Shown piece after piece: positions 15,442-45,630 of a DNA stretch of 64,000 nucleotides (within the stretch, counting starts at the first letter, position 1; the number at the start of each line of letters is the position of its first letter). A program made the translations under genes and the position numbers. The notes under the pieces are model-generated. The model worked only from the letters and a program-made list of their open reading frames with translations. It was not told where the DNA came from and did not search any database. This stretch comes from Bdellovibrionales bacterium (GTDB lineage Bacteria; Bdellovibrionota; Bdellovibrionia; Bdellovibrionales; CAYMLA01): positions 896,001 to 960,000 of the forward strand of contig OZ244239.1 in the NCBI GenBank assembly GCA_965217115.1, written 5' to 3'.

Positions 15442-16200
15442 TTAAAAATGATAAATTAGATTAATAGCATTTTTCCTATGTTTTACCTTTGCACCATTTC
15501 TGTTAAGGCTTCTAAAAGCATCTGCTTGAAATTCATGTCTAGAATAAACAAACTCTAAACTAAAACCATTATGAAAATTTAAGCCTGCTTTTAGTGCCCT
15601 GTAGCTTCCATCAACATCTGTCTCTCCTTTTGTTCCATATTCTGGATCACCTGGAACTCCGCTGTAGTAACTTTTCGTCCACTTACCCTTTGTTTTTGCA
15701 TAACCAGCTCCAACATAAGGGCTCACACCTCTTACTGCAGTAAATATATATAATCCACCAAAATAAATATCGATTGTCTCTACCTCAGATGAAGGTGAAT
15801 CAACAACGATATCTACTGGGCCGGTCGCAGTGTTTTGTGTAAACGCAGAACCGTCATCATGTTTCAAAGCAATCTCTTGTCTTGGAGACTTTATTCTTGT
15901 TTTATAAATTCCAACTTCATATCCCCAACCTGTTTCTGGAATATATCTTAGATTATAACCAAAAGACGTACTTCTCTCAATGAGTGCATCTAATATATTT
16001 GCATTTTCCTCTGTTATATCCTCTGGATTAGTGCCTATAAAGTGTCCATAATCCAAATGCTTACCTGTTATATCACTCGTTGAATCTCCCACACTGCTGC
16101 TAACAAGAAACCCATGTTTAAAGATTTCTTCAGCTTTTGCTTCCTGATTGTGTGTCACTGCTAAGATCATCGTCGCGAGAATAATTATATATGTGTGCAT
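15442..16200 (-). CDS. Outer-membrane beta-barrel protein
   Basis: Signal peptide (AKA), SPYVGAGY strand, terminal YHF; RBS AAGGAG. Confidence 0.75.
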   Translation of the reverse strand: MHTYIIILATMILAVTHNQEAKAEEIFKHGFLVSSSVGDSTSDITGKHLDYGHFIGTNPEDITEENANILDALIERSTSFGYNLRYIPETGWGYEVGIYKTRIKSPRQEIALKHDDGSAFTQNTATGPVDIVVDSPSSEVETIDIYFGGLYIFTAVRGVSPYVGAGYAKTKGKWTKSYYSGVPGDPEYGTKGETDVDGSYRALKAGLNFHNGFSLEFVYSRHEFQADAFRSLNRNGAKVKHRKNAINLIYHF

Positions 16201-16412
16201 AACGGCCTCTCCTTCATTGGTCTCGTTCTATCTCTTTAGGAGAAGAAACTCTTAAAGAGCGATCAAACATTATTAGTTTAAACAAACCTGTCTAAGCTAG
16301 CTAAAAGGTTTTCACCCTCTCTTTTAACACAGAGCATCAAAAGATGCCACCTTTTTCCGCTCTTGAGAACTTTTTACAAAAAAGGGTTTTATGACTTATA
16401 CTCGGGGGCTTA

Positions 16413-17483
16413 TCAGATCAAGAGCTCTGGACGTCCTTCATATTTAGACGTCAATTGACCACAGGCTGCATAAATATCTCTACCCATGGTTTTACGTAAA
16501 AGAACATGAACTCCATTGTCCATTAATTCCTCGCGAAAGCGTTCCACCTGCCCATTGCTCGGTCGAACATAATCAGCATCCTCATGCTCATTAAAGGGAA
16601 TTATGTTCACCTTGCAGGGAATTGATTTAGCTATTTCAGCTAAACGTCTAGCGTCAGCAAGAGAGTCTGTCACTCCTTTAAGTAATACATACTCAACAGT
16701 CACCTTGTCCTTTGTGATTCTTGCGTGTTTTCGACAGGCCTCTAACAATTGTTCAATGGAGTGCTTTTTATTGATCGGCATAATCTCAGAACGAACGGCG
16801 TTGGAGCTACCATTGAGTGAAACAGCCAAACGCACTCTGGCTTGAGTGACCAATGGAATTTGCTCCACCAGACCAGAAGTTGATACTGTGATCTTCTTTC
16901 TTGATATATTCATCCCCCAAGGAGAGTGTAAAACTTCAATCGCTTTAAATACAGCTTCGGGATTATCAAGTGGCTCCCCCATTCCCATAAAAACAATATT
17001 CGTAATACGCTGACCCTCTTCTATAAGATTAGAAGCCCCAACAAACTGCCCGACAATTTCTCTGGCACTTAACCGTTTCTTTAGTTTTCTTTTGCCCGTA
17101 AAACAAAACTTACAACCAAGATTACAACCAACCTCCGATGACACACACAAAGTCAAACGCCCATCAGAAGGAATTAAAACAGCCTCGACCGTCATTGCTA
17201 CTTGACGATCATCAATCACTTCGCTGACATCAAAAAGAAACTTCTGTGTCCCATCCACACTGATTTTATGTTCCACAACTTTAGGCAAAGAAAAATTTAG
17301 CAACTGAGGCAACTCTTCGCGAAATTTTTTTGAAAGGTTCGTCATTTGCTCAACGTCAGTCACTCCTTTTTCATAAACCCATTTAAAAATCTGCTGAGCA
17401 CGAAACTTGGCCTTACCCAAAATCTCCAATCGACTTTGTAAATCATCCAAACTCAAATCATAAAAATAACTCTTTTCCTTCAA
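16413..17483 (-). CDS. rlmN: 23S rRNA m2A2503 / tRNA methyltransferase RlmN
   Basis: CNLGCKFC radical-SAM motif, FMGMGEP, AACGQL. Confidence 0.97.
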   Translation of the reverse strand: MKEKSYFYDLSLDDLQSRLEILGKAKFRAQQIFKWVYEKGVTDVEQMTNLSKKFREELPQLLNFSLPKVVEHKISVDGTQKFLFDVSEVIDDRQVAMTVEAVLIPSDGRLTLCVSSEVGCNLGCKFCFTGKRKLKKRLSAREIVGQFVGASNLIEEGQRITNIVFMGMGEPLDNPEAVFKAIEVLHSPWGMNISRKKITVSTSGLVEQIPLVTQARVRLAVSLNGSSNAVRSEIMPINKKHSIEQLLEACRKHARITKDKVTVEYVLLKGVTDSLADARRLAEIAKSIPCKVNIIPFNEHEDADYVRPSNGQVERFREELMDNGVHVLLRKTMGRDIYAACGQLTSKYEGRPELLI

Positions 17484-17648
17484 TCAGCCCTCCACCAAAG
17501 CCCTCTCCTTCTACCACAAACACCAAAATATCTCACCAAAACCCCCTTTAATAATCCATTCTAATCATTTTTTAAGAATTTATTTCACACCCCCCTCCGT
17601 TATTCCCTCCGTTATTCCCCCCGTTGTTCCCAGTCCCCGCAAGTTTTC

Positions 17649-17775
17649 AAATAAATGGTTCAAAGGGTCTTTCATCTTCAAGCGAGTTCGGATTGGTGCG
17701 CCGCTCGCAAAGCGAGCCGCGCTGCCGAACGAATGTCTGAGCTTGAAGATGGAAGACCCTTTGAACCATTTATTT
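17649..17775. repeat. Nested palindromic element, copy 1 (127 nt, 35-bp arms)
   Basis: Arms 17649-17683 and 17741-17775 pair with a single G-T; inner stems gttcgg/ccgaac and gctcgc-aaa-gcgagc. Confidence 0.97.
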
Positions 17776-17839
17776 CAGACCCAGCTCCCCAAAACCCATG
17801 TTATAGAGAACCATCTTATACAATTCTACTGGGAGAAAT

Positions 17840-17914
17840 AAAGCCCTAGGTAAATAATCAGCCTCTAGCCGACAAGGCTAAGATTTGACGACGTACAAAA
17901 TAAATTATTCCATT
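17840..17914 (+). repeat. 75-bp direct repeat, copy A
   Basis: aaagccctaggtaaataatc...aaattattccatt; 74/75 identical to 19831-19905. Confidence 0.97.
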
Positions 17915-18779
17915 ATTCAAGTGAACGTAGACATTTGGCAACTTTTTTCATTTCTGAGCTTTCTGTAGATGATTTTGACTTAACAATATAAACATCTCTT
18001 TTGATGGGCTTAAAGCCACTTGGGAAATTTTTCTGATATAGCTTATAATCATCTTTAACAATTTGATTGTGAATTTTGGCAATAAAATTTGGAAGATAAA
18101 TAACACATAATCCACTCCTTGAAAGTTCTATTGCACTTTCGAGAGTATCAACTCTATGTTGAATTAAGCGTGGAAACTCATGCTCCGGCCAACCATCAAG
18201 CCCTTTGACACCTGACGGAGCCCCTTTTATTGGTTGTATGGGAGCTACAAAAGGTATTTCCTGAAAATTTAAATTATTAAAAGAACCTTTTGTTCCGTAA
18301 ATTGACATTTGAACTTTTGAAATTTTTAAAAAATCTACCCCAGGAGTTGGGATAGGCTCATATGTTATTCCAAAATCTACTATCTTTTTTGCAACAAATT
18401 CTTCTAATTCTCCCTGTCTGGTTTCATAGAGATCTAATTTATAAGTTTCCAACAATGGCTTCAACTTCTTTAAAAAATACGTGCTAAAGACCTCAAATGT
18501 TGCTATTTTAATATTACTTGATTCAGCTTTTTTATTTATTACACTTAAATCTTCTATTTGATTGATGATGTTCTTAGCTCTCTTATAAATAACTACTGCT
18601 TCATTGGAGGGCACTATACCTCGGCCTTCGGGTAAAAATAGTTCAAAACCCAGTTCTTCTTCTAATACTTTCAGTGACTTAGACAGCGCACCATGGCTCA
18701 TTCCTATTAGATCAGCGGCACTTCTTAACCCACCAGTTTCAACAACCGTACAAAATTGCTTAAGCCTATTGGTCTCCAT
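17913..18779 (-). CDS. LysR family transcriptional regulator
   Basis: METNRLKQFCTVVETGGLRSAADLIGMSHGALSKSLKVLEEELG helix-turn-helix; start corrected to ATG 18779. Confidence 0.93.
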   Translation of the reverse strand: METNRLKQFCTVVETGGLRSAADLIGMSHGALSKSLKVLEEELGFELFLPEGRGIVPSNEAVVIYKRAKNIINQIEDLSVINKKAESSNIKIATFEVFSTYFLKKLKPLLETYKLDLYETRQGELEEFVAKKIVDFGITYEPIPTPGVDFLKISKVQMSIYGTKGSFNNLNFQEIPFVAPIQPIKGAPSGVKGLDGWPEHEFPRLIQHRVDTLESAIELSRSGLCVIYLPNFIAKIHNQIVKDDYKLYQKNFPSGFKPIKRDVYIVKSKSSTESSEMKKVAKCLRSLE

Positions 18780-33343: not shown

Positions 33344-33583
33344 TCTAAAACAGAGCCATATCCAAACTGAAATGCGCTCTAAAGGATTTGAGCGCTTTTC
33401 TGAACAAATAACAGCAAATCGACAGACTCTCAAGCGACCCTAAGCCCCTCTTCACAGCCCATTCCTTCACCCCTTTAATTTTGTAAATTTATATATATAT
33501 GCTCTTTTTTCACTTATTTTCTTCTCATTTTCACTATTTCCACGTATTTAATGCTTTAAGAGAACCTTACCATGGAGGCTTTT

Positions 33584-34078
33584 GTGAAAAAAACAGATTT
33601 TCTCTTCGAAAGAATAGTCAGTGAGGTGCAAAAAATTAAAGACCTAGACACACTTAAGAAAGAACTCAAAAAACTCGCCAAAGAAATACAAAAAGAGATC
33701 CAAAAAATCGGAAGCCCCGTCGACCTCGCCAAAAACCAGCTAAAACAATTAGAACTTCAATACAGTGATCTTCTTAAAAAAATATCTAAGGCTCAGAAGC
33801 AATTTGATAAAGAGGTCTTCAATGCTCTTGGTAATATAAAAAAAGTACGCAAAGACGCGAAAAAAACTTTCCACTCTTACAAGAAAAAAGCTAAAACTCA
33901 AAAAAAGAAAATTAAAGTCGCCATCAAAAAGAAAGCTAAAAAGAAAACAGCTGCCGTAAAAAAAACTAGTAAAAAAATAGCTAAAAAAATCTCTAAAAAA
34001 ATTAATAAAAAACTAAATACAACTAAAAAAACCTCAACACGTAAAAAAAACTCAACACGTAAAAAAACCTCTTCTTAA
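33584..34078 (+). CDS. Coiled-coil protein with Lys/Ala-rich histone-H1-like C-terminal tail
   Basis: GGAGG then GTG 33584; KKKAKKKTAAVKKTSKK tail. Confidence 0.75.
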   Translation: MKKTDFLFERIVSEVQKIKDLDTLKKELKKLAKEIQKEIQKIGSPVDLAKNQLKQLELQYSDLLKKISKAQKQFDKEVFNALGNIKKVRKDAKKTFHSYKKKAKTQKKKIKVAIKKKAKKKTAAVKKTSKKIAKKISKKINKKLNTTKKTSTRKKNSTRKKTSS

Positions 34079-34101: not shown

Positions 34102-37038
34102 ATGAATAGCTTCTTTCCGTCACTTGATAACATGAACAATAATGAAGAGTTTATTTCAAGACACATTGGTCCTAATTCCTCAGAGACTCAAGAAATGCTA
34201 CAAAGCTTAGGAGTTAGTGATTTTGATAGCCTCATTAATAAAACACTTCCTGAAAATATTCTCACGAAGAAAGATTTTGACTTAAAACACGCACAAACAG
34301 AACACCAAACTCTCAAAGAGATCAAAGCTCTCGCTAAACAAAACCAGATTTACCGTACTTACATTGGCATGGGGTTTCACGATACCATCACACCTCCCGT
34401 TATTCAGAGAAATGTTTTTGAAAATCCTGGCTGGTACACAGCTTACACCCCCTATCAACCAGAGATTTCACAGGGACGCTTAGAGGCTCTTATTAATTTT
34501 CAAACCATGTGTTCTGAGCTCACTGGAATGGATATCTCTAATGCCTCTCTTCTCGATGAAGGAACTGCTGCAGCCGAAGCCATGATTTTGTGCCGCAATC
34601 AAATTCGTGATAAGAACAGGAAGACTTTCTTCATCAGCGACGACACCCATCCACACACTATTGAGGTTATCAAGACCCGCGCCCAACACTTGGATATAAA
34701 TATACAAATCGGCCCTGTTGTCTCTACAGATTGGTCTCTGTGTTTTGGAGCATTGCTCTCCTATCCGAACACCTATGGTTCCATTGAGAATATGAGTTCG
34801 CTCATTGCTAAAATACAAGGAAATGGTGCTCTTGTTGCTGTTGCAGTAGATCTACTCAGCTTAACTATTCTCAAGCCTCCCGGGGAGATGGGTGCAAATG
34901 TTGTCGTCGGTAACACACAGCGCTTTGGTGTTCCACTTGGTTTTGGCGGTCCCCATGCCGCATTTATGGCCACACAAGATAAATTTAAACGCAGTCTTCC
35001 TGGCCGCATAGTCGGTGTTTCGGTGGATACTAAAGGACGCAAATCTTATCGATTGGCTCTACAGACACGGGAACAGCACATCCGTCGAGAGAGAGCATCA
35101 AGTAATATCTGCACCGCCCAAGTTCTTTTGGCCAATATGGCTTCTTTCTATGCTGTTTATCATGGTCCACAGGGGCTTATTCGTATTGCTAAACGTATTC
35201 ACAAACTCACATCGGCACTCTACGAAGGACTGCAGTCTTTAGGTTTTGAATGTCTTCACGGAGATTTTTTTGACACAATCGTTCTTCGCACAGTCACTCC
35301 ATCTACTGAAAAAAAAGGACAGAAAAGCAACGACGAGATTTATCAAGAAGCATTGAATAAAAAAATTAACCTCAGAAAGGTCCCTCAAGGTTTAAGTATT
35401 TCCCTTAACGAAACAACGACTTCTGAGGATATTTCTGACATTTTAGAAGTTTTTAGTGGACAAAAAAGAGACCTCACAAAGCTCATCGCAGATGCATCTA
35501 AAAAAATCCCTGATGACCTTATTCGATTATCTACTTTTATGACTCATAAGGTTTTTAACTCTTTTCACAGTGAAACATCCATGCTCCGTTACATTCAAAA
35601 ATTACAGAACAAAGATCTCTCACTCACGCAAGCCATGATTCCTCTAGGCTCTTGCACCATGAAGCTCAATGCCACCACAGAACTTATCCCCGTGTCCTGG
35701 CCTGAGTTTAATAAGATCCATCCCTTTGTGCCTTTAGATCAAGCCAAAGGTTATCTACAGCTCATCAAAGAAACGGAACAAATGCTTGCCACTATCACTG
35801 GTTTCTCTTGCGTATCACTGCAACCCAACGCCGGCTCCCAAGGAGAGTTTGCAGGTCTACTTGTTATACGTCGCTACCAACAGGAGAAAAATCAAGGGGA
35901 ACGTAATATATGCCTCATACCCCATTCAGCCCATGGCACTAATCCTGCCAGCGCTGTTATGTCAGGACTTAAAGTCGTCGTCATCAAATGTGATAACGAT
36001 GGTAATATTGACGTTGACGATTTAAAAAACAAAGCTCAAGAACACAAGTCCCACTTATCTAGTTTAATGATCACCTATCCTTCCACCCACGGAGTCTACG
36101 AAGAAACCATCCAAAACATCTGTAAAATTATTCACGATAACGGCGGACAGGTCTACATGGACGGAGCCAACATGAATGCTCTTGTCGGGTTGGCTCGCCT
36201 TCCCGAGTTAGGGGCCGATGTGTGTCATCTAAATCTCCATAAAACATTTGCCATTCCCCACGGTGGCGGCGGTCCAGGCGTTGGACCCATTGGCGTCGCA
36301 GAACATTTAAAAAACTTCCTCCCAAACCATGGACTCGTTCCTGAGGCTGGACCTATCACGGGAATTGGTTCTACGACCTCGGCTCCTTGGGGAAGCGCCA
36401 GTATTTTACCCATCTCTTGGGCATATATGAAGATGCTGGGAGGCAACGGCCTCAGAAAAGCCACTGAATATGCTATTTTAAACGCTAACTACATTGCTAA
36501 GAAATTAGAAAACCATTATGAAATTTTGTACAAGGGAAAAAATGGCATGGTCGCCCACGAGTGCATTATTGATGTCAGACCCTTCAAACAAAGTGCGGGT
36601 GTCACGGTTGATGATATCGCTAAACGACTGATTGATTATAGTTTTCACGCACCAACAATGTCTTGGCCTGTCCCCGGAACTCTTATGGTGGAACCCACAG
36701 AGAGCGAAGAAAAAAAAGAACTGGATCGCTTTATCAATGCCATGATCCGTATTCGAAAAGAGATACAGGCTATTGAAGAAGGTGTCTACTCCCGAGAAGA
36801 CAACGTTCTCAAAAATGCTCCTCATACAGTTGAAGGCCTCATTGCCCCCTCTTGGAGTCATGAGTATCCAAGGGACGAAGCTGCTTACCCTGTTCCTGGT
36901 TTAAGAGATAACAAGTACTGGGCTCCTATTACAAGAATCGACAATGCCTATGGCGATCGCAACTTAGTTTGCTCCTGTCCTGCCATAGAAGAATATGAGA
37001 CAGAAGAATATGAAACAGAAGAACATGAAACGAAATAA
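34102..37038 (+). CDS. gcvP: Glycine dehydrogenase (glycine cleavage P protein)
   Basis: YTPYQPEISQGRLE, SNICTAQ, LNLHKTFAIPHGGGGPG, GDRNLVCSC. Confidence 0.99.
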   Translation: MNSFFPSLDNMNNNEEFISRHIGPNSSETQEMLQSLGVSDFDSLINKTLPENILTKKDFDLKHAQTEHQTLKEIKALAKQNQIYRTYIGMGFHDTITPPVIQRNVFENPGWYTAYTPYQPEISQGRLEALINFQTMCSELTGMDISNASLLDEGTAAAEAMILCRNQIRDKNRKTFFISDDTHPHTIEVIKTRAQHLDINIQIGPVVSTDWSLCFGALLSYPNTYGSIENMSSLIAKIQGNGALVAVAVDLLSLTILKPPGEMGANVVVGNTQRFGVPLGFGGPHAAFMATQDKFKRSLPGRIVGVSVDTKGRKSYRLALQTREQHIRRERASSNICTAQVLLANMASFYAVYHGPQGLIRIAKRIHKLTSALYEGLQSLGFECLHGDFFDTIVLRTVTPSTEKKGQKSNDEIYQEALNKKINLRKVPQGLSISLNETTTSEDISDILEVFSGQKRDLTKLIADASKKIPDDLIRLSTFMTHKVFNSFHSETSMLRYIQKLQNKDLSLTQAMIPLGSCTMKLNATTELIPVSWPEFNKIHPFVPLDQAKGYLQLIKETEQMLATITGFSCVSLQPNAGSQGEFAGLLVIRRYQQEKNQGERNICLIPHSAHGTNPASAVMSGLKVVVIKCDNDGNIDVDDLKNKAQEHKSHLSSLMITYPSTHGVYEETIQNICKIIHDNGGQVYMDGANMNALVGLARLPELGADVCHLNLHKTFAIPHGGGGPGVGPIGVAEHLKNFLPNHGLVPEAGPITGIGSTTSAPWGSASILPISWAYMKMLGGNGLRKATEYAILNANYIAKKLENHYEILYKGKNGMVAHECIIDVRPFKQSAGVTVDDIAKRLIDYSFHAPTMSWPVPGTLMVEPTESEEKKELDRFINAMIRIRKEIQAIEEGVYSREDNVLKNAPHTVEGLIAPSWSHEYPRDEAAYPVPGLRDNKYWAPITRIDNAYGDRNLVCSCPAIEEYETEEYETEEHETK

Positions 37039-37837: not shown

Positions 37838-38800
37838 TTAAAGCTTTTCAGTAAAGTCTGTTAGTAAGAAATAACGATCGAATAGAGAGTTGTATCGGGA
37901 CCACTTTTCCCCCGACTTTCGTTCGTCTTTCATAAAACCTTCAAGAATATTTATACGACTATCAAGTTCATCCACCATAGAAACAACAAGAGCCTCTAAA
38001 AACTTAGGTCGCTTAGGGCTGCCAAACTCCAACTTACCGTGATGACTTAAAACAATATGCTTACAGATATCTCTTAACTCATCAGAGAAGCCTTCAATAT
38101 GATTTGATTTCCTATCGATCAATTCTAAGGCAATGCCCATATGCCCTATCAACCGCCCTTTATCCGTGTAAGAAGTCGTTCCTCCATAGGACAACTCCCA
38201 AACCTTACCTATATCGTGATAAATAGCTCCAAAATACAGAAGATCTCGATTCAAAGTCTGATAATGGCTGGACAAAAATTTCATGATTTTTAAAATAGAC
38301 ATCGTGTGATCTAAAAGTCCCCCTATCCATGCATGATGAATATTCTTTGCCGCAGGAGCCTTTAATAGCAATGGCTTTATTTCTTTATCATTAACCGTAT
38401 TTTCCAGCAACTGTCGTAAATGACTATTTTCCACTTCATCAACAAATTGCAACAGCTCGACATACATTAACTCTGATGAATTATCACTCGCGGGTAGAAA
38501 GTCTTTAATATCATAATCATCGACTTGTACTTTTTGTATATCACGAATAATAATCTGCTTGCGCCCTTGAAAAACCTGTACAACTCCTTGCACCCAGGAT
38601 AAGTCACCATCATCAAACTTTTTGTTCAAGTCATCGGCATTATCCCAAACTCGCCCATCAATTTGTCCTGTTTTGTCAGAAAGCAACACAGATAAGTAGG
38701 GTTTTCCCGTTTTTCCCATGTTTAGATGCTTCTCTTTCACAAGAAGAACTGTCTCTATTTTATCTTTTTCCTGGAAATGCTCTACACTGATCTTTTTCAT
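37838..38800 (-). CDS. OB-fold plus HD domain protein, YhaM-like 3'-5' exoribonuclease
   Basis: LSDKTGQIDGRVW, HHAWIGGLLDH, YHDIGK, SHHGKLEFGSP. Confidence 0.9.
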   Translation of the reverse strand: MKKISVEHFQEKDKIETVLLVKEKHLNMGKTGKPYLSVLLSDKTGQIDGRVWDNADDLNKKFDDGDLSWVQGVVQVFQGRKQIIIRDIQKVQVDDYDIKDFLPASDNSSELMYVELLQFVDEVENSHLRQLLENTVNDKEIKPLLLKAPAAKNIHHAWIGGLLDHTMSILKIMKFLSSHYQTLNRDLLYFGAIYHDIGKVWELSYGGTTSYTDKGRLIGHMGIALELIDRKSNHIEGFSDELRDICKHIVLSHHGKLEFGSPKRPKFLEALVVSMVDELDSRINILEGFMKDERKSGEKWSRYNSLFDRYFLLTDFTEKL

Positions 38801-38857: not shown

Positions 38858-40018
38858 TTATCGCACTATTCCTTGCTCCCCATGACTCCCTCCACCGTCA
38901 CCCTGTGAATCTTTTTTTGGATGCTTCTTAGCAATCGCCTGTTGCACCTTTTCCTCACAAGTTTGATTATAATCGCCCATTATTTTAGCTGATTTCTTAG
39001 ACTGGAAGTTCTGCAAAGCTCCCTCGCAACAATCAGCAATGAGTGTTGTGAGCCCTTCTTTAAAAAGGGGTTTGAAATTCTTCTCTGCCAATGCTTTTAC
39101 ATTAAATTCAACGTGATAGGTGAATGGGCTTTTCCCTAAATCTTTAAAAAAGGCTCCTGAGAAATCACTCTCTTGAACAAACCTAGGGTGTTCTTTGTCG
39201 GTTTTAGCAAATAAACCCTTTTCGTCCAGTTCCCTAAGACCATCCCCTGCAAATACAAGGATTTTATCACCACTTGATATATTTTTTATTCTTGGAAAAC
39301 TAAAATCTCCATCTTTGATCCCTAAGGTGTACTTCTTGCCCCCTACTGTTATATCAGAAAATGATCGACCCTTCTTATCCCTGCGACAGGTAAATTCTGT
39401 TGGATTTAAAGACTCCAACAACCTTTCATCCGCGGAATCAACATTCTTGTATATAGTCATGCCTACCCAAGTTATACCAGCAATGACTCCATTAATGGCA
39501 ATTGAAATTGGCAACATATTAGCAGTTGTGATAACAATACCAACAGCATGGGCTTTAGGCGCTATTAATGATAAGAACACAGACGGTGATTTACTTGGTT
39601 TTTGATAGAGTTTATTTATCGCTGTGTAAAGGGAGCGAAAACTCCTATGGGAGGTCGCATTTAACTCTTTGCCATTAATAAGGAACTTTCCCTCAATGGC
39701 TTTTTGAAAACCGACGTTGACCTTCTCGCCACCCACCCTCATCACCAGATCATTGCCACTCACGGAGAGTTTTATCTTTTGGGATTTAGGTGTTTGCTCT
39801 ATCAGATCTTGGATGAACTTCCTGTCGTCTTTCAACTTCAATATCTTCTTTAAACCAACGAACATCTCCCGCGCATGGACGCCATGGATCTGTTCATAGG
39901 CTCGACCCATTAACTCTTGATTCACATCACTCAAAGGAGTCCCAAACACGACGGGTGAAAAAAGCAAGCCCACCATAGATGTAAAAAAAACTGACATCAG
40001 TAAAACCATTCTCTTCAT
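38858..40018 (-). CDS. Secreted paralogue P1 of a four-gene tandem family
   Basis: MKRMVLL signal peptide; N-terminal half near-identical to P2-P4. Confidence 0.9.
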   Translation of the reverse strand: MKRMVLLMSVFFTSMVGLLFSPVVFGTPLSDVNQELMGRAYEQIHGVHAREMFVGLKKILKLKDDRKFIQDLIEQTPKSQKIKLSVSGNDLVMRVGGEKVNVGFQKAIEGKFLINGKELNATSHRSFRSLYTAINKLYQKPSKSPSVFLSLIAPKAHAVGIVITTANMLPISIAINGVIAGITWVGMTIYKNVDSADERLLESLNPTEFTCRRDKKGRSFSDITVGGKKYTLGIKDGDFSFPRIKNISSGDKILVFAGDGLRELDEKGLFAKTDKEHPRFVQESDFSGAFFKDLGKSPFTYHVEFNVKALAEKNFKPLFKEGLTTLIADCCEGALQNFQSKKSAKIMGDYNQTCEEKVQQAIAKKHPKKDSQGDGGGSHGEQGIVR

Positions 40019-40063
40019 CAGAAACCTTCCATTCAAATTCAATGGGTTTTTCATGTGCTGCTC

Positions 40064-41236
40064 TTATTTCACTGTTGTTCTATTATTAGTCGTTCCATCA
40101 TCACCTGATGAATCTTTTTTTGGATGCTTTTTAGCAATCGCCTGTTGCACCTTTTCCTCACAAGTTCGACTCCTAGCGCCCATCGTTCCATATGATCTCT
40201 TATTAAATTGGAAGTTCTCCAAAGCTCCATCGCAACAATCAGCAATGGCTGTGAGCCCTACTCTTAAAAAAGGCTTGAAATTTTTCTCTGCCAATTTTTT
40301 TAACCCACGTTTATCACCTTGATAAAAGCGGCTGCTTTTATAGTCTCTAAAAACAGCTTTTGAGAAATCACTCGCCTGAACAGATTTAGGGTATGGCTCG
40401 GTTCTAATAACTGAACCCCTTCTGTACCGTCCCCTAAAACCATCATTTGCAAATATAATCTCTCTTTTATGCCCATCAGCCTTACCAACTGATATGCTTT
40501 TTATTCTTGGACGATTAAACGCTCCATCTCTGATCTTTAAGGTGTACTTCTTGCCCCCTACTGTTATATCAGAAAATGACTGATCATCCTTATCCCTGCG
40601 ACAACTAAATTCCGTTGGATCTAAAGATTGCAGCAGCCTTTCATCCATAGGAGTGCCTCCAAGATTCGTATCTGACCCTAGAAAATCTATACCATTAAGA
40701 ATTGAGGGTATAAGAATTACAGGAGTCATTGCAGCAATAGCAGAAGTAGCTATCAAACCAAGAGCATAGGCTTTAGGCGCTATTAACGATAAAAACACAG
40801 ACGGTGATTTACTTGGCTTTTGATAGAGTTTATTTATCGCCGTGTAAAGAGACCGAAAACTCCTATGGGAGGTCACATTTAACTCTTTGCCATTAATAAG
40901 GAACTTTCCCTCGATGGCTTTTTGAAAGCCAACGTTGATCTTCTCTCCCCCCACACTCATCACCAGATCATTGCCACTCACGGAGAGTTTTATCTTTTGG
41001 GATTTAGGTGTTTGCTCTATCAGCTCTTGGATGAATTTCCTGTCGTCTTTCAACTTCAATATCTTCTTTAAACCAACGAACATCTCCCGCGCATGGACGC
41101 CATGGATCTGTTCATAGGCTCGACCCATTAACTCTTGATTCACATCACTCAAAGGAGTCCCAAACACGACTGGTGAAAAAAGCAAACTCACCATAGATGT
41201 AAAAAAAACTGACATCAGTAAAACCATTCTCTTCAT
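40064..41236 (-). CDS. Secreted paralogue P2
   Basis: As P1; RBS AAGGAAGG. Confidence 0.9.
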   Translation of the reverse strand: MKRMVLLMSVFFTSMVSLLFSPVVFGTPLSDVNQELMGRAYEQIHGVHAREMFVGLKKILKLKDDRKFIQELIEQTPKSQKIKLSVSGNDLVMSVGGEKINVGFQKAIEGKFLINGKELNVTSHRSFRSLYTAINKLYQKPSKSPSVFLSLIAPKAYALGLIATSAIAAMTPVILIPSILNGIDFLGSDTNLGGTPMDERLLQSLDPTEFSCRRDKDDQSFSDITVGGKKYTLKIRDGAFNRPRIKSISVGKADGHKREIIFANDGFRGRYRRGSVIRTEPYPKSVQASDFSKAVFRDYKSSRFYQGDKRGLKKLAEKNFKPFLRVGLTAIADCCDGALENFQFNKRSYGTMGARSRTCEEKVQQAIAKKHPKKDSSGDDGTTNNRTTVK

Positions 41237-41280
41237 CACAGACCTTCCTTTCAAATTCAATGATTTTTCATGTGCTGCTC

Positions 41281-42462
41281 TTAGTGCACTGCCGGAGTAT
41301 CCCTAAAACGCACTCCACCGTTATCTTGTGAATCTTTTTTTGGATGCTTTTTAGCAATCGCCTGTTGCAGCTTTTCCTCACAAGTTCGACTCCTAGCGCC
41401 CATCGTTCCATATGATCTCTTATTAGATTGGAAGTTCTCCAAAGCTCCCTCGCAACAATCAGCAATGGCTGTGAGCCCTACTTTTAAAAAAGGCTTGAAA
41501 TTTTTCTCTGCCAATTTTTTTAACCCACGTTTATCACCTTGATAAAAGCGGCTGCTTTTATAGTCTCTAAAAACAGCTTTTGAGAAATCACTCTCCTGAA
41601 CAGGTTCAGGGCGGTATGGCTCGGTTCTAATAAAAAGTAAACCATTTCTGTACCGTCCCCTAAAACCATCATTTGCAAATATAATCTCTTTTTTATGCCC
41701 ATCAGCCTTACCAATTGATATACTTTTTATTCTTGGGCGATTAAACGCTCCATCTCTGATCTTTAAGGTGTACTTCTTGCCACCCACTGTTATATCAGAA
41801 AATGGTTGATCATCCTTATCCCTGCGACAACTAAATTCCGTTGGATCTAAAGATTGCAACAGCCTTTCATCCATAGGAGTGCTTCCAAGATTCGTATCTG
41901 CCCTTAGAAAATCCAGAACAGTCCAAATTGTGGGAGCAACAATTGCACCAAGCATTGCACCAATACCAACACTAGCTATCAAACCAACAGCATGGGCTTT
42001 AGGCGCTATTAATGATAAAAACACAGACGGTGATTTACTTGGTTTTTGATAGAGTTTGTTTATCGCCGTGTAAAGGGACCGGAAACTCCTATGGGAGGTC
42101 GCATTTAACTCTTTGCCATTAATAAGGAACTTTCCCTCAATGGCTTTTTGAAACCCGACGTTGATCTTCTCGCCACCCACCCTCATCACCAGATCATTGC
42201 CACTCACGGAGAGTTTTATCTTATGGGATTTAGGTGTTTGCTCTATCAGCCCTTGGATGAATTTCCTGTCGTCTTTCAACTTCAATATCTTCTTTAAACC
42301 AACGAACATCTCCCGCGCATGGACGCCATGGATCTGTTCATAGGCTCGACCCATTAACTCTTGATTCACATCACTCAAAGGAGTCCCAAATACGACTGGT
42401 GAAAAAAGCAAGCCCACCATAGATGTAAAAAAAACTGACATCAGTAAAACCATTCTCTTCAT
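41281..42462 (-). CDS. Secreted paralogue P3
   Basis: As P1. Confidence 0.9.
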   Translation of the reverse strand: MKRMVLLMSVFFTSMVGLLFSPVVFGTPLSDVNQELMGRAYEQIHGVHAREMFVGLKKILKLKDDRKFIQGLIEQTPKSHKIKLSVSGNDLVMRVGGEKINVGFQKAIEGKFLINGKELNATSHRSFRSLYTAINKLYQKPSKSPSVFLSLIAPKAHAVGLIASVGIGAMLGAIVAPTIWTVLDFLRADTNLGSTPMDERLLQSLDPTEFSCRRDKDDQPFSDITVGGKKYTLKIRDGAFNRPRIKSISIGKADGHKKEIIFANDGFRGRYRNGLLFIRTEPYRPEPVQESDFSKAVFRDYKSSRFYQGDKRGLKKLAEKNFKPFLKVGLTAIADCCEGALENFQSNKRSYGTMGARSRTCEEKLQQAIAKKHPKKDSQDNGGVRFRDTPAVH

Positions 42463-42557
42463 CATAGACCTTCCTTTCAAATTCAATGATTTTTCATGTG
42501 CTGTTCTTAACCAATACTCTTTAAGCAGAGAAATGCTAAATTTTAAACACCTCTCTC

Positions 42558-43727
42558 TTATCGCACTATCTGACTATCCTTACCAGACACTCCACCGTCA
42601 CTCTGTGAATCTTTTTTTGGATGCTTTTTAGCAATTGCCTGTTGCACCTTTTCCTCACAATTTCGCTTATCAGCGCCCATCGTTCCATATGAGATCTTAG
42701 CCTGGAATTTCTGCAAAGCTCCCTCGCAACAATCAGCAATGGCTGTGAGCCCTGCTTTTAAAAAAAGTTTGAAATTCTTCTCTGCCAATGGTCTTACCGT
42801 GTCTGAATCTTTTTCGTAAAAGCGCCTGCTTTTATGGTCTCTAAAAACAGCTTTTGAGAAATCACTCGCTTGAACAGACCCAGGGGTTCCTGTGTCCTCT
42901 CTAAAAATGGTACCATTTTTGTACAGTCCCCTAAAACCATCATTTGCAAATGTCATCGTTTTTTTATCCCCATCATCCTTACCAACTGATATACTTTTTA
43001 TTCTTGGAAAACTAAACGCTCCATCTCTGATCTCTAAGGTGTACTTCTTGCCCCCTACTGTTATATCAGAAAATGATTGCCCCTTCTTCCTGCGACAACC
43101 AAAGTCCGTTGGATTTAAAGACTGCAACAAGCTTTCATCCGCACCAATAGCTCCAAAACCAATACCCATCTTTGTAGATATAAAGTCATTAGAAAACGCA
43201 ACAGCGGTAGCAACTCCTGCTGCTGCTGCTGCTGCTACACCCAACATAACACCAGCATGGGCCTTAGGCACTATTAATGATAAAAACACAGACGGTGATT
43301 TACTTGGTTTTTGATAGAGTTTGTCTATCGCCGTGTAAAGGGACCGGAAACTCCTATGGGAGGTCGCATTTAACTCTTTGCCATTAATAAGGAACTTTCC
43401 CTCAATGGCTTTTTGAAACCCGACGTTGATCTTCTCGCCACCCACCCTCATCACCAGATCATTGCCACTCACGGAGAGTTTTATCTTATGGGATTTAGGT
43501 GTTTGCTCTATCAGCCCTTGGATGAATTTCCTGTCGTCTTTCAACTTCAATATCTTCTTTAAACCAACGAACATCTCCCGCGCATGGACGCCATGGATCT
43601 GTTCATAGGCTCGACCCATTAACTCTTGATTCACATCACTCAAAGGAGTCCCAAACACGACTGGTGAAAAAAGCAAGCTCACCATAGATGTAAAAAAAAC
43701 TGACATCAGTAAAACCATTCTCTTCAT
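42558..43727 (-). CDS. Secreted paralogue P4 (first in transcription order)
   Basis: As P1. Confidence 0.9.
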   Translation of the reverse strand: MKRMVLLMSVFFTSMVSLLFSPVVFGTPLSDVNQELMGRAYEQIHGVHAREMFVGLKKILKLKDDRKFIQGLIEQTPKSHKIKLSVSGNDLVMRVGGEKINVGFQKAIEGKFLINGKELNATSHRSFRSLYTAIDKLYQKPSKSPSVFLSLIVPKAHAGVMLGVAAAAAAGVATAVAFSNDFISTKMGIGFGAIGADESLLQSLNPTDFGCRRKKGQSFSDITVGGKKYTLEIRDGAFSFPRIKSISVGKDDGDKKTMTFANDGFRGLYKNGTIFREDTGTPGSVQASDFSKAVFRDHKSRRFYEKDSDTVRPLAEKNFKLFLKAGLTAIADCCEGALQKFQAKISYGTMGADKRNCEEKVQQAIAKKHPKKDSQSDGGVSGKDSQIVR

Positions 43728-43917
43728 CACAGACCTTCCTTTACAAGAACTCTTTAAAATTCACCACTGACATAGTGTATAACACTCCAATCCCGGGTCC
43801 TAGTTCCATTCCTCATTTCCATTTTAATTCTTGGCTTAAGACTGGAAGTGAACTAGACCTTTGTGTTATGTAAATTTCTTAAGATCTCTTGCAAAAAAAA
43901 CCCGAAATCGCCCGATC

Positions 43918-45630
43918 TCAAAGGCTCTTGCCCCCTCGATAACGATACAGAGGCAGGTAATTAGGATAGAGTTTTTCAATTTTCTCAATCCAATATTTTT
44001 TTCGCTTTGAAGTTTTTAACAACCCCATATAAGCAGGGAGAAGGCGACTGTTTATCTTTAAAGCCTCTTGCCAACGACTCTTAGCACATTTTAACTTGTT
44101 TCTCTCAGCACAAATTGATCCTTCTATTAAAAAAGGCAGGGCATATTTCTTGCTTTTTTGGGCAACTCTTCCTGATGAGATTGCCTCTCCATCTTGCCCT
44201 GTTCTTCTCAAGTAAAAGGCTCGAATTGTCTGAACAAAGCCATCCTTTGGAGCCATGAACACAGCCTCGTCAATAAATTTAGTCGCCTCATGCTCCCTCT
44301 GGGATAAAACCAAGCACAAGGAATAAAGAGCTCTCTGTCTACTCTTTCTTAAAAGATTCTCTGAAACAAATTTACATTCATCAAATAAATCAATCCAATC
44401 AATATCACTTTTATAAACTAAGATATCCCTGTAATAATTCTGTGGGCTATCTCCTAAAGCATCTAAAAAGCCCCTTAGAAACCTCCCCTCCTTTTTCGTA
44501 TTTCCCAGTATTGCACTGTAAGCTTTCAACAAAAAAGCGGGCGCTCTATAAGGGTTTAACTGATCAGTCACAATTTTCAATGCCTGATTAGCTCTCAATA
44601 AAATTTTCCCCCGCTCTTTGCCTTGAAGGTTTTTTTTATACTCCTTTAAATACCCCCAACCAGAGATAAAGTAAGATAACAGAGAGGACTCTCCAACCTC
44701 CATCACTTCCTTAGAGGATGTTTTTAAATTTCTCCATTGCTTTTGATGGAAATTTAACATCATTTTATTTAACAGAGCTGAAGTGAAATTTCCGTTAATA
44801 CTTAAAGCCTTCAACAGTTGATTTTCAGCTTGCTCCCAATCATTGCTCTCCATATAGAGAAGGCCCAAAGCCGTGTAAACCTCCACTGCGACTTGCCTCC
44901 CTCTCTTAGATGCAAGCAAGGACTCTAATTCCCTCCGAGCAGCAACTCTCTCTCCCTTCAGAATCATACGCAAAGGAGATAGCTTCACTAAAATCTCTGA
45001 TTGATTGGGGATTAAAACATCTGCTTGAGATAAAAAACTCCACGCACCTTCATAATCACCCACCTGATAAGAATCCCATCCTTTATTTGCCAAGTTTTCA
45101 AAATTATTTATTTTAGATTTAAACACACTGTTTTTGATTAAAAAAAACACTCCTGATATGAGAATAAATGCCACGACTGTGACCCACAGGTATTTTCGAT
45201 AGGATGAGATTTTTTTTTCAACCTCTCTCTCTATATTTGAACCAAAACGCTTTTCTGCTTTTTTACTTTCCCCCTTAATAAGTTCCTCTGGCAATACAAA
45301 CTCAGGATCTGTTTTATCAAAATTACCAACATCCAGAACATCTGTGTCCGTAATTGTATTATTAATACTTACGGTTCTTGTCTTATCATTCAGAGAGAGA
45401 TTTGTTCTCTCTATCGTGCTGTCCATCATCTCTTCTCTTAATTTGGAAAAATGAGGCTCTAAAGAGATTTGACAATATCTTCCGAAGGGCTGACAAATCT
45501 CATCGTCATCGATAAGGTTTCCATTTTGTAAATGCTCTGCAATTTCATTATAACTATAGGGACCAAGTAGCTCACCATTAGAGCGAACAAGCCATTTTTT
45601 TATTTGTTTATCATTCTTCTTTAAAGACAC
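43918..45630 (-). CDS. Membrane protein: GYF_2-like N-domain, single TM, periplasmic TPR repeats
   Basis: WLVRSNGELLGPYS; TM LWVTVVAFILISGVFFLI; TPR-like ALGLLYMESNDWEQAENQLLKAL. Confidence 0.75.
   Translation of the reverse strand: MSLKKNDKQIKKWLVRSNGELLGPYSYNEIAEHLQNGNLIDDDEICQPFGRYCQISLEPHFSKLREEMMDSTIERTNLSLNDKTRTVSINNTITDTDVLDVGNFDKTDPEFVLPEELIKGESKKAEKRFGSNIEREVEKKISSYRKYLWVTVVAFILISGVFFLIKNSVFKSKINNFENLANKGWDSYQVGDYEGAWSFLSQADVLIPNQSEILVKLSPLRMILKGERVAARRELESLLASKRGRQVAVEVYTALGLLYMESNDWEQAENQLLKALSINGNFTSALLNKMMLNFHQKQWRNLKTSSKEVMEVGESSLLSYFISGWGYLKEYKKNLQGKERGKILLRANQALKIVTDQLNPYRAPAFLLKAYSAILGNTKKEGRFLRGFLDALGDSPQNYYRDILVYKSDIDWIDLFDECKFVSENLLRKSRQRALYSLCLVLSQREHEATKFIDEAVFMAPKDGFVQTIRAFYLRRTGQDGEAISSGRVAQKSKKYALPFLIEGSICAERNKLKCAKSRWQEALKINSRLLPAYMGLLKTSKRKKYWIEKIEKLYPNYLPLYRYRGGKSL

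Follow-up and report, generated by a model that had tools for sequence, protein, structure and literature searches.

Four paralogous genes lie in tandem on the minus strand of a 64,000-nucleotide stretch of DNA from a Bdellovibrionales bacterium (GCA_965217115.1, contig OZ244239.1, positions 896,001 to 960,000). We refer to the whole stretch as the window, and coordinates are given within it unless another locus is named. The first gene of the array, encoding paralogue D (389 aa), occupies 42558-43727 (open reading frame, ORF, 42558-43730) and is followed by those for C (393 aa; 41281-42462, ORF 41281-42486), B (390 aa; 40064-41236, ORF 40064-41260) and A (386 aa; 38858-40018, ORF 38858-40054), the last and most divergent copy; this would also be the order of transcription. 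A preliminary description of the locus had proposed four intact tandem genes of about 390 codons, with a constant N-terminal half, including the ribosome-binding site (RBS) and the signal peptide, and a block-wise variable C-terminal half. The four ORFs were confirmed. As listed they run 390-401 aa. Alignment of the DNA of the four gene units revealed a common start, MKRM..., with GGAAGG located 6 nt upstream; it is likely the true start of all four genes, and the products after correction of the start are 386-393 aa long. About 45 nt upstream, together with the RBS, are common to A, B and C and partly to D.

From the stop codon of one gene to the MKRM start of the next, the spacing is 95, 44 and 45 bp in the order D, C, B, A. 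Because these gaps are so short, no ORF fits between the copies, and none of at least 60 aa was found there on the coding strand, in line with the earlier remark that immunity-like small ORFs are missing. Antisense ORFs within the copies we take as chance. The 190-bp spacer upstream of D (43728-43917, minus strand) is the presumed promoter region of the array; consensus scans of it found no sigma-70-like or sigma-54-like site, so we infer a promoter here rather than locate one.

The constant 5' part comprises codons 1-158 (474 nt; D 43254-43727, C 41989-42462, B 40763-41236, A 39545-40018, all on the minus strand) and encodes the signal peptide, an N-terminal domain (N-domain) and a junction of the form LIxPKAHA. 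Directly behind it on the same strand is a hypervariable hydrophobic block (D 43143-43253, C ~41905-41988, B ~40676-40762, A ~39449-39544), the ends of which are approximate; in D it covers about codons 159-195. This most variable block, which encodes a possibly membrane-spanning segment, had not been mentioned in the preliminary description. Behind it, variable stretches alternate with the anchors FSDITVGGKKYTL, LAEKNFK, IADCC and CEEK.QQAIAKKHPKKDS, which are invariant in the protein alignment of the four copies, as are four Cys residues, all behind the junction; the N-domain has none. Both the anchors and the conserved Cys had been pointed out before. In D, the poly-Ala core of the hydrophobic block is encoded by a perfect (GCA)6 / CTG trinucleotide run (43218-43235, minus strand), at which slippage could alter the length of the segment.

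The genome consists of one contig of 2,170,531 bases (99.4% complete) and has exactly four matches to the paralogues. We also compared the array with short-read contigs of four runs, which come from one sample, probably the source of the genome, and thus do not support it independently. Contig depths in run X2 were 38.2-48.8 for unique pieces of A, B and D, 37.5 and 33.9 for the flanks, and 122.7 for a piece of the shared N-half; contig depths are not copy numbers, as the tool itself warns, and the pattern is that expected if one genome has four copies, and not if a single locus is present as four strain alleles. Three more alleles were recovered from ENA contigs of 5119 bases: P0004 is whole, P0006 lacks the start and P0021 covers the C-terminal half. 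We infer that the three share one contig and represent the tandem array of a related strain. Apparently, the copies are not assembly-merged strain alleles, the artefact against which the preliminary description had cautioned.

The short-read contigs of the sample also contained a variant of the variable part of B (window 40346-40610) with 4-8 letters changed, and contigs of low depth (3.7-6.1) that fuse different copies at the joints 41515>42807 and 43542>40849. Either strain variation or recombination may underlie the B variant and the copy-joining contigs, or they may be chimeras of the assembly.

Relatives and architecture of the array proteins

None of the four proteins matched a family in Pfam, NCBIfam or PADLOC. 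A sequence-profile search of the PDB gave a best E-value of 0.83, a search of the ESM Atlas gave no usable match, and a word-indexed search of 5.8 billion proteins retrieved nothing beyond the copies of this genome and the ENA alleles. When the query consisted of the four copies only, 1 of 41 genomes matched, which was the source genome itself, and a related-locus search of genome contigs and metagenome contigs confirmed no locus. An exhaustive search of 1.84 billion representatives with a hidden Markov model (HMM) returned three proteins at E<=1e-3. One represents the query's own cluster, another is a fragment of 89 aa, and the third, P0008 (289 aa; E 2.8e-4), comes from a JGI metagenome. The fragment (P0007) is identical to the window proteins in its first ~55 residues and divergent after that; it is probably a frameshifted or truncated copy from another assembly. 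P0008 is the only real distant relative among the three. When the six close alleles were aligned to it with hhalign, the probability was 95.6% over 149 columns, and the alignment spans the N-domain up to a common V-P-E-A-H-A motif and the hydrophobic stretch; by these sequence criteria P0008 is a true relative. Used as a query in the word-indexed search, it matched only itself.

A profile built from the window alleles and P0008 only (A3) matched 35 of the 384 genomes of the order at E<=0.1 (best 6.5e-15), among them G045, G111, G112, G039 and G053 at E-values from 6.5e-15 to 5e-10. A 19-sequence profile matched 114 of the 384 at E<=1e-3 (80 of 274 good-quality genomes; 55 of 121 genera), and a 34-sequence profile matched 96 of 401 genomes drawn across the phylum, including 16 of 20, 29 of 100 and 5 of 57 genomes in three families outside the order (f16, f22 and f25). 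These family tallies include G000; any sequence used to build a profile necessarily matches it, and related genomes do not count as independent. The profile match of paralogue D had E-values of 2e-117 to 7e-122. Most matches span only the N-domain through the hydrophobic segment, in ORFs of ~220 to 650 aa. Neither the 34 members scanned against NCBIfam nor the 12 homologues scanned against Pfam matched any model; nothing rose above noise. The profile matches thus place the four genes in an undescribed, Bdellovibrionota-wide protein family, which has no Pfam, NCBIfam or PDB relative and is present in between about a quarter and a third of the genomes sampled from the phylum. The preliminary description had recognised no family and had regarded the constant half as an export or pro-domain of this array; that half is better described as the conserved domain of the wider family.

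By exact look-up, members of the family are annotated as 'hypothetical protein' in Bdellovibrio bacteriovorus, Bdellovibrio sp. HCB117 and Bdellovibrio sp. ArHS, and the literature searched contained no paper with any of the five accessions or locus tags of the Bdellovibrio homologues; among the papers listed by a keyword search, none mentioned Bdellovibrio. Two of these, WP_063205056.1 and WP_413568677.1 (335 aa), are true homologues of the window proteins. They have the signal peptide, the N-domain, a junction of the form F-F-P-x-A-x-A and a C-terminal CC...C motif in common with them, but are only ~18-20% identical to them, are single-copy, have 8 Cys in all, and carry two Cys and one Glu within a post-junction segment that is weakly hydrophobic.

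Other genomes contain up to four copies. Genome G232 has three members within ~12 kb (L054:6306-7670, 15994-16626, 16912-18636), an example of old paralogue clusters of the family elsewhere. These copies are 34-39% identical, in the N-terminal part only, and in two of them 16 Cys follow the junction. Because they are so divergent, the near-identical front half is peculiar to the window array. In the same genome, an ISL3-family transposase gene (L055:8356-9609) abuts a family member, with one base common to stop and start, a hint that mobile or rearranged regions harbour some of the copies.

The 34 aligned members show the same order of parts. Every member begins with a typical signal peptide; the window proteins read MKRMVLLMSVFFTSMVGLLFSPVVFG/TP, without a lipobox Cys, and the signal peptide noted earlier looks like one here as well. 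It is followed by the N-domain of ~120 residues with a G-K-F-x-x-N-G-like motif and, directly behind this, by the junction, which consists of two or three hydrophobic residues and then P-x-A-x-A. The junction reads LIAPKAHA, LIAPKAYA or LIVPKAHA in the window and FFPYAQA or FFPAAHA in Bdellovibrio members. At Leu151, Ala156, Ala158 and one Cys, conservation among the 34 members is 90% or higher. A segment rich in Gly, Ala, Ser and Thr comes directly behind the junction. Its 19-residue Kyte-Doolittle maximum is 0.15-2.71 family-wide and 1.76-2.11 in the four window copies, all of which have a segment of transmembrane grade after the signal peptide (as judged by Kyte-Doolittle values); in 14 of the 34 members the maximum lies below 1.5, too weak for a membrane span. 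The part behind the junction is 129-294 residues long, with a median identity of 14% among 24 representatives, and ends in a CC...C motif in 19 of the 34 members.

Cys residues are distributed unevenly between the two parts. The N-domain is free of Cys in 32 of the 34 members, and the number of Cys behind the junction is even in 31 of 34 (21 of the 24 representatives below 60% identity). The C-terminal parts (C-parts) of the window copies have net charges of +4 to +18. In the 16 strongly hydrophobic members, Lys plus Arg average 2.5 on the N-side of the segment vs 1.1 on its C-side, and in the four window copies there are 3 vs 0-1, a pattern opposite to that expected of an out-to-in membrane anchor. 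Two conventional classes were considered and rejected: a lipoprotein, for want of a lipobox Cys and of any Cys in the first 200 residues, and a C-terminal sorting signal, since the motif lies mid-protein.

The check by AlphaFold and Foldseek suggested in the preliminary description yielded a model for one half of the protein. AlphaFold2 run with the six close alleles gave a mean pLDDT (predicted local distance difference test) of 33.7. With the 34-sequence alignment, residues ~31-140 were modelled confidently (10-residue block means of 79-92) as three helices, a five-stranded antiparallel sheet and one more helix, and from the junction onward the pLDDT was below 50. Foldseek found no PDB match to the N-domain model at E<=0.001 (best E-value 0.16), and a wide VIA-align search found no chain at Z >=5. 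A frataxin/CyaY-like sandwich (4hs5_A, Z 4.3, root-mean-square deviation 5.1 A over 85 residues) was rejected as background, since Z values below 8 are, by the tool's own account, common among unrelated structures. We therefore assign no fold. A homodimer prediction for the N-domain (residues 27-160, two copies) scored 0.01, which weighs neither way.

Sequence evolution of the four copies

Any two copies differ at 5-20 positions within their first 474 nt (95.8-98.9% identical), whereas the remaining 663-696 aligned positions contain 70 (B-C) to 211 (A-C) differences (10-31%). The sliding identities and the ratio of nonsynonymous to synonymous substitution rates (dN/dS), both proposed as checks beforehand, separate the two halves clearly. 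In the front half dN/dS is 0.15-0.21 with dS of 0.09-0.14 in five of the six pairs; the pair C-D has only six differences. As dS is not zero and dN/dS is nevertheless low, the pattern reflects selection and not conversion alone, and points to purifying selection on the front half with recent homogenisation on top. In the back half dN/dS is 0.66-1.32. The hydrophobic block is only 20-70% identical in nucleotides and saturated in most pairs; in the close pair B-C, its dS is 0.07 vs a dN of 0.35. The last ~twelve codons give ratios of 2.7-10, from very few sites. A carries 91 singleton sites vs 18-42 in the other copies.

The two halves of C have different nearest neighbours. In the front, C is nearest to D (5 differences; 18 to B), and in the back it is nearest to B (70 of 696; 157 to D), so that C is a mosaic (Fisher p=1.2e-5). 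Among parsimony-informative sites, 46 support the split AD|BC, all behind codon 150, and earlier sites support AB|CD by 4 to 0. The discordance between front and back of C, together with these split sites, indicates gene conversion between neighbours. Blocks also reassort across the set of seven alleles. In B, C and P0004, a QGD-type block follows FSKAVF.D.KS..F, and D, P0006 and P0021 have a KDxDTVR-type block there. Ahead of the last Cys, D and P0004 have the block GADKRN, and B, C, P0006 and P0021 have GARSRT. Since all four combinations of these types occur, the blocks have been reassorted, which bears out the block-wise variability proposed for the C-half.

We further compared independent pairs of the tree ((A,D),(B,C)), which avoids a circular choice of sites. 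Omega (dN/dS) for B-C was 2.13 at the 98 codons where A and D differ (one-sided Fisher p=0.054) and 0.71 at the 123 codons where they agree; in the reverse contrast, omega was 1.63 (p=0.16) vs 1.01. These values are suggestive of recurrent amino-acid change at the same positions, short of significance. The sharp contrast in substitutions and the reassortment of blocks agree with the preliminary description; for its term diversifying, in the sense of positive selection, the support is only suggestive.

Possible location and role of the C-terminal part

Taken together, the signal peptide, the Cys-free N-domain, the even Cys numbers, the weak segments in part of the family and the lack of a positive-inside bias suggest that the protein is exported whole and that its C-part is disulfide-bonded and located outside the cytoplasm. 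We tentatively favour, at somewhat less than even confidence, the explanation that the products of the array are modular proteins for export, in which a constant handle is combined with a diversified working end, and that the array arose by lineage-specific tandem expansion of the Bdellovibrionota-wide family. The proteins would be exported through the Sec pathway by means of a cleavable signal peptide. The N-domain and the junction would form the handle, for export handling, docking or processing; we read the N-module in this way because it is constant within the array and across the phylum, whereas the C-part is variable at both depths. Just before the hydrophobic stretch, the P-x-A-x-A junction looks like a signal-peptidase-type site, at which cleavage is putative. 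The hydrophobic segment and the basic C-part would make up the working end, which may touch membranes or envelopes of other cells. As the relatives are predatory, action on prey is plausible. The array itself would evolve by duplication, by gene conversion of the 5' half, and by block-wise recombination of the 3' half with fast amino-acid change.

Several observations weigh against this explanation. The segments of the window copies (1.76-2.11) are strong enough to act as stop-transfer anchors, which would leave the C-part in the cytoplasm, and the even Cys numbers could also be explained by metal sites. No predicted fold supports a working end behind the junction. At six homologue loci there was no common neighbour, secretion system or protease, and the sole other genome of the source's taxonomic family (G001, 94% complete) has no member. 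The tallies across the phylum rest on an iterated profile and on genomes that are partly kin. The excess of amino-acid change is non-significant in both contrasts, with four genes and uncertain alignment in the indel-rich blocks, and relaxed constraint would likewise yield an overall dN/dS near 1. The effector or surface-antigen role proposed earlier remains hypothetical.

The hydropathy of the segment is the starting point of the main alternative, in which the products are bitopic inner-membrane proteins with a cleaved signal peptide, a periplasmic N-domain, a true transmembrane anchor and a basic cytoplasmic C-part holding metal-binding Cys; the block would vary since only its hydrophobicity is constrained, and the array would serve an envelope or signalling task of the cell's own. 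The positive charge of the C-part, the 4 or 8 Cys (one or two tetrahedral metal sites) and a high divergence with hydrophobicity kept, typical of a simple anchor, all agree with such a topology. We consider it unlikely, however, because the 16 strong cases show no positive-inside bias, 14 of the 34 members have no segment of transmembrane grade, the Bdellovibrio subfamily has Cys and Glu inside the segment, and the C-parts match no cytoplasmic domain family; Cys counts of 2, 6 and 10 and the adjacent CC pair suit disulfides better than CxxC-type metal sites. In a second alternative, the proteins would be effectors resembling polymorphic toxins, in which a trafficking N-domain and an A-x-A release site precede a membrane-active toxin delivered to prey only, so that no immunity is needed. 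The change from near-identical to divergent sequence exactly at a conserved motif, the family-wide retention of the N-module next to C-parts that differ in length and sequence, the basic and hydrophobic nature of these C-parts, and the secreted hydrolases adjoining some homologues (M14 carboxypeptidase, GH5, astacin, YkuD) are consistent with this idea. It is nevertheless rather improbable: gaps of 44-95 bp leave no room for immunity-like ORFs, the C-parts of the array are 69-90% identical in DNA and have common anchors, unlike swapped cassettes, searches of Pfam, NCBIfam and PADLOC matched no toxin domain and no defence or toxin family, neither the window flanks nor the six homologue loci contain a secretion-system gene, and cleavage at the junction is a pure inference.

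The substitution pattern permits another explanation, that of redundant duplicates in neutral drift, the 5' half being constant through recent gene conversion and the 3' half relaxed on the way to decay. A back-half dN/dS that is indistinguishable from 1, the clear conversion or mosaicism, the non-significant test for omega >1 and the finding of no RNA entry among the sequencing runs listed are all compatible with it. Drift is quite improbable, though, considering that the four frames and one whole allele of a related strain are intact, that long anchors and four Cys are invariant in the variable half of seven alleles, that hydrophobicity is kept in blocks with saturated sequence, and that the front half combines measurable synonymous divergence (five pairs) with the low dN/dS given above, which conversion by itself does not produce.

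Predatory Bdellovibrio-type bacteria have many exported proteins of unknown role, and how they recognise and breach different prey is only partly understood. The favoured explanation of a constant handle with a diversified working end can be carried further along this line, in a form that we regard as a distinctly improbable speculation. The N-domain, the P-x-A-x-A junction and the hydrophobic segment might be a so far unrecognised delivery-and-release module, confined to predatory Bdellovibrionota, that carries many different disulfide-rich payloads; cleavage at A-x-A following export would expose a hydrophobic, Gly/Ala-rich N-terminus resembling a viral fusion peptide, which would insert the basic C-part into prey membranes, and the array would be a repertoire of payloads, diversified by recombination to match prey envelopes.

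According to Tsuru and Kobayashi (2008, PMC2568036), the tandem lipoprotein-like (lpl) cluster in nuSa-alpha of Staphylococcus aureus has in every ORF a highly conserved stretch, proposed as a recombination site, with variable regions shuffled among copies and strains. Like the array, it consists of tandem exported paralogues with part-wise discordant phylogenies and recombination via a conserved stretch. It differs in that its conserved stretch is central and flanked by variable regions on both sides, whereas in the array constancy extends over the entire 5' half and variation is confined to the 3' half. The lpl-type (DUF576) proteins have a lipoprotein signal and a Pfam domain, whereas the array proteins have neither a lipobox Cys nor a Pfam match, and the host is S. 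aureus rather than a Gram-negative, Bdellovibrio-like bacterium. By analogy, lpl appears to be the closest described evolutionary pattern among the cases that we read.

Two other comparisons are instructive. Sorting signals for sortase, exosortase and rhombosortase consist of a short motif, a transmembrane helix and a basic tail. The array proteins likewise have a short conserved motif directly before a hydrophobic helix, but the motif is mid-protein with 129-294 residues after it across the family, and NCBIfam, which holds models of sorting signals, gave no match. In polymorphic toxins the N-terminal part is conserved, the sequence turns variable sharply at a conserved motif, and recombination generates diversity at the C-terminus; an immunity gene is defining for them. 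The constant N-part of the array proteins and the sharp switch to a variable C-part at a conserved motif are alike. The array differs in that immunity genes, orphan cassettes and a linked secretion system are missing, that its proteins match no known toxin or pre-toxin domain, and that its C-parts are homologous to one another. Polymorphic toxin systems are treated by Zhang et al. (2012, PMC3482391).

Recombining tandem clusters of exported paralogues were thus already known; new is an undescribed, phylum-wide family that builds one. The array amounts to a natural experiment, in which one module is joined to four recently diverged C-parts, and reveals what has been kept constant in these proteins and what may vary freely or has been driven to change. 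Should the C-parts turn out to act on prey, the family would represent a new type of modular predator effector; otherwise, the array still illustrates cleanly how partial gene conversion shapes a tandem cluster in bacteria.

Genomic setting of the array

Downstream of A, a housekeeping gene on the minus strand (37838-38800) encodes a protein with an OB-fold and an HD domain (Pfam tRNA_anti-codon and HD), the orthologues of which are 48-57% identical in 4 of 5 relatives. Upstream of D, also on the minus strand, is a gene for a 570-aa TPR protein (43918-45630; Pfam TPR), and a methylase-fold protein is also encoded among the flanks. A TPR gene lies near the HD gene in G001, G039 and G021. Between the two, G001 (of the same family as the source) and G039 (Bdellovibrio) have one gene for a protein of 226-234 aa (L059:1107-1787 and L060:1054-1758) with a lipoprotein-like N-terminus, which overlaps or abuts both neighbours; in G021, the same two flank genes are close together. 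The lipoprotein is unrelated to the array family (hhalign probability 0.8%), and its gene was not found in the source genome with the G001 protein as a single query, a weak blank. Because the flanks are conserved and the relatives have another gene between them, the array occupies this slot and seems, from the gene order, to have replaced the lipoprotein gene. A foreign origin of the array was considered and rejected, as its G+C content (0.39-0.41) equals that of the window.

Elsewhere in the window, on the plus strand, a 168-aa ORF (33572-34078) has a lysine-rich, low-complexity tail (KKKAKKKTAAVKKTSKK...) as its C-terminal half and resembles histone-like or granule-associated basic proteins. 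It lies just upstream of a gene for a 978-aa glycine dehydrogenase (GcvP-like; 34102-37038, plus strand), the ORF of which ends in the acidic repeat EEYETEEYETEEHETK.

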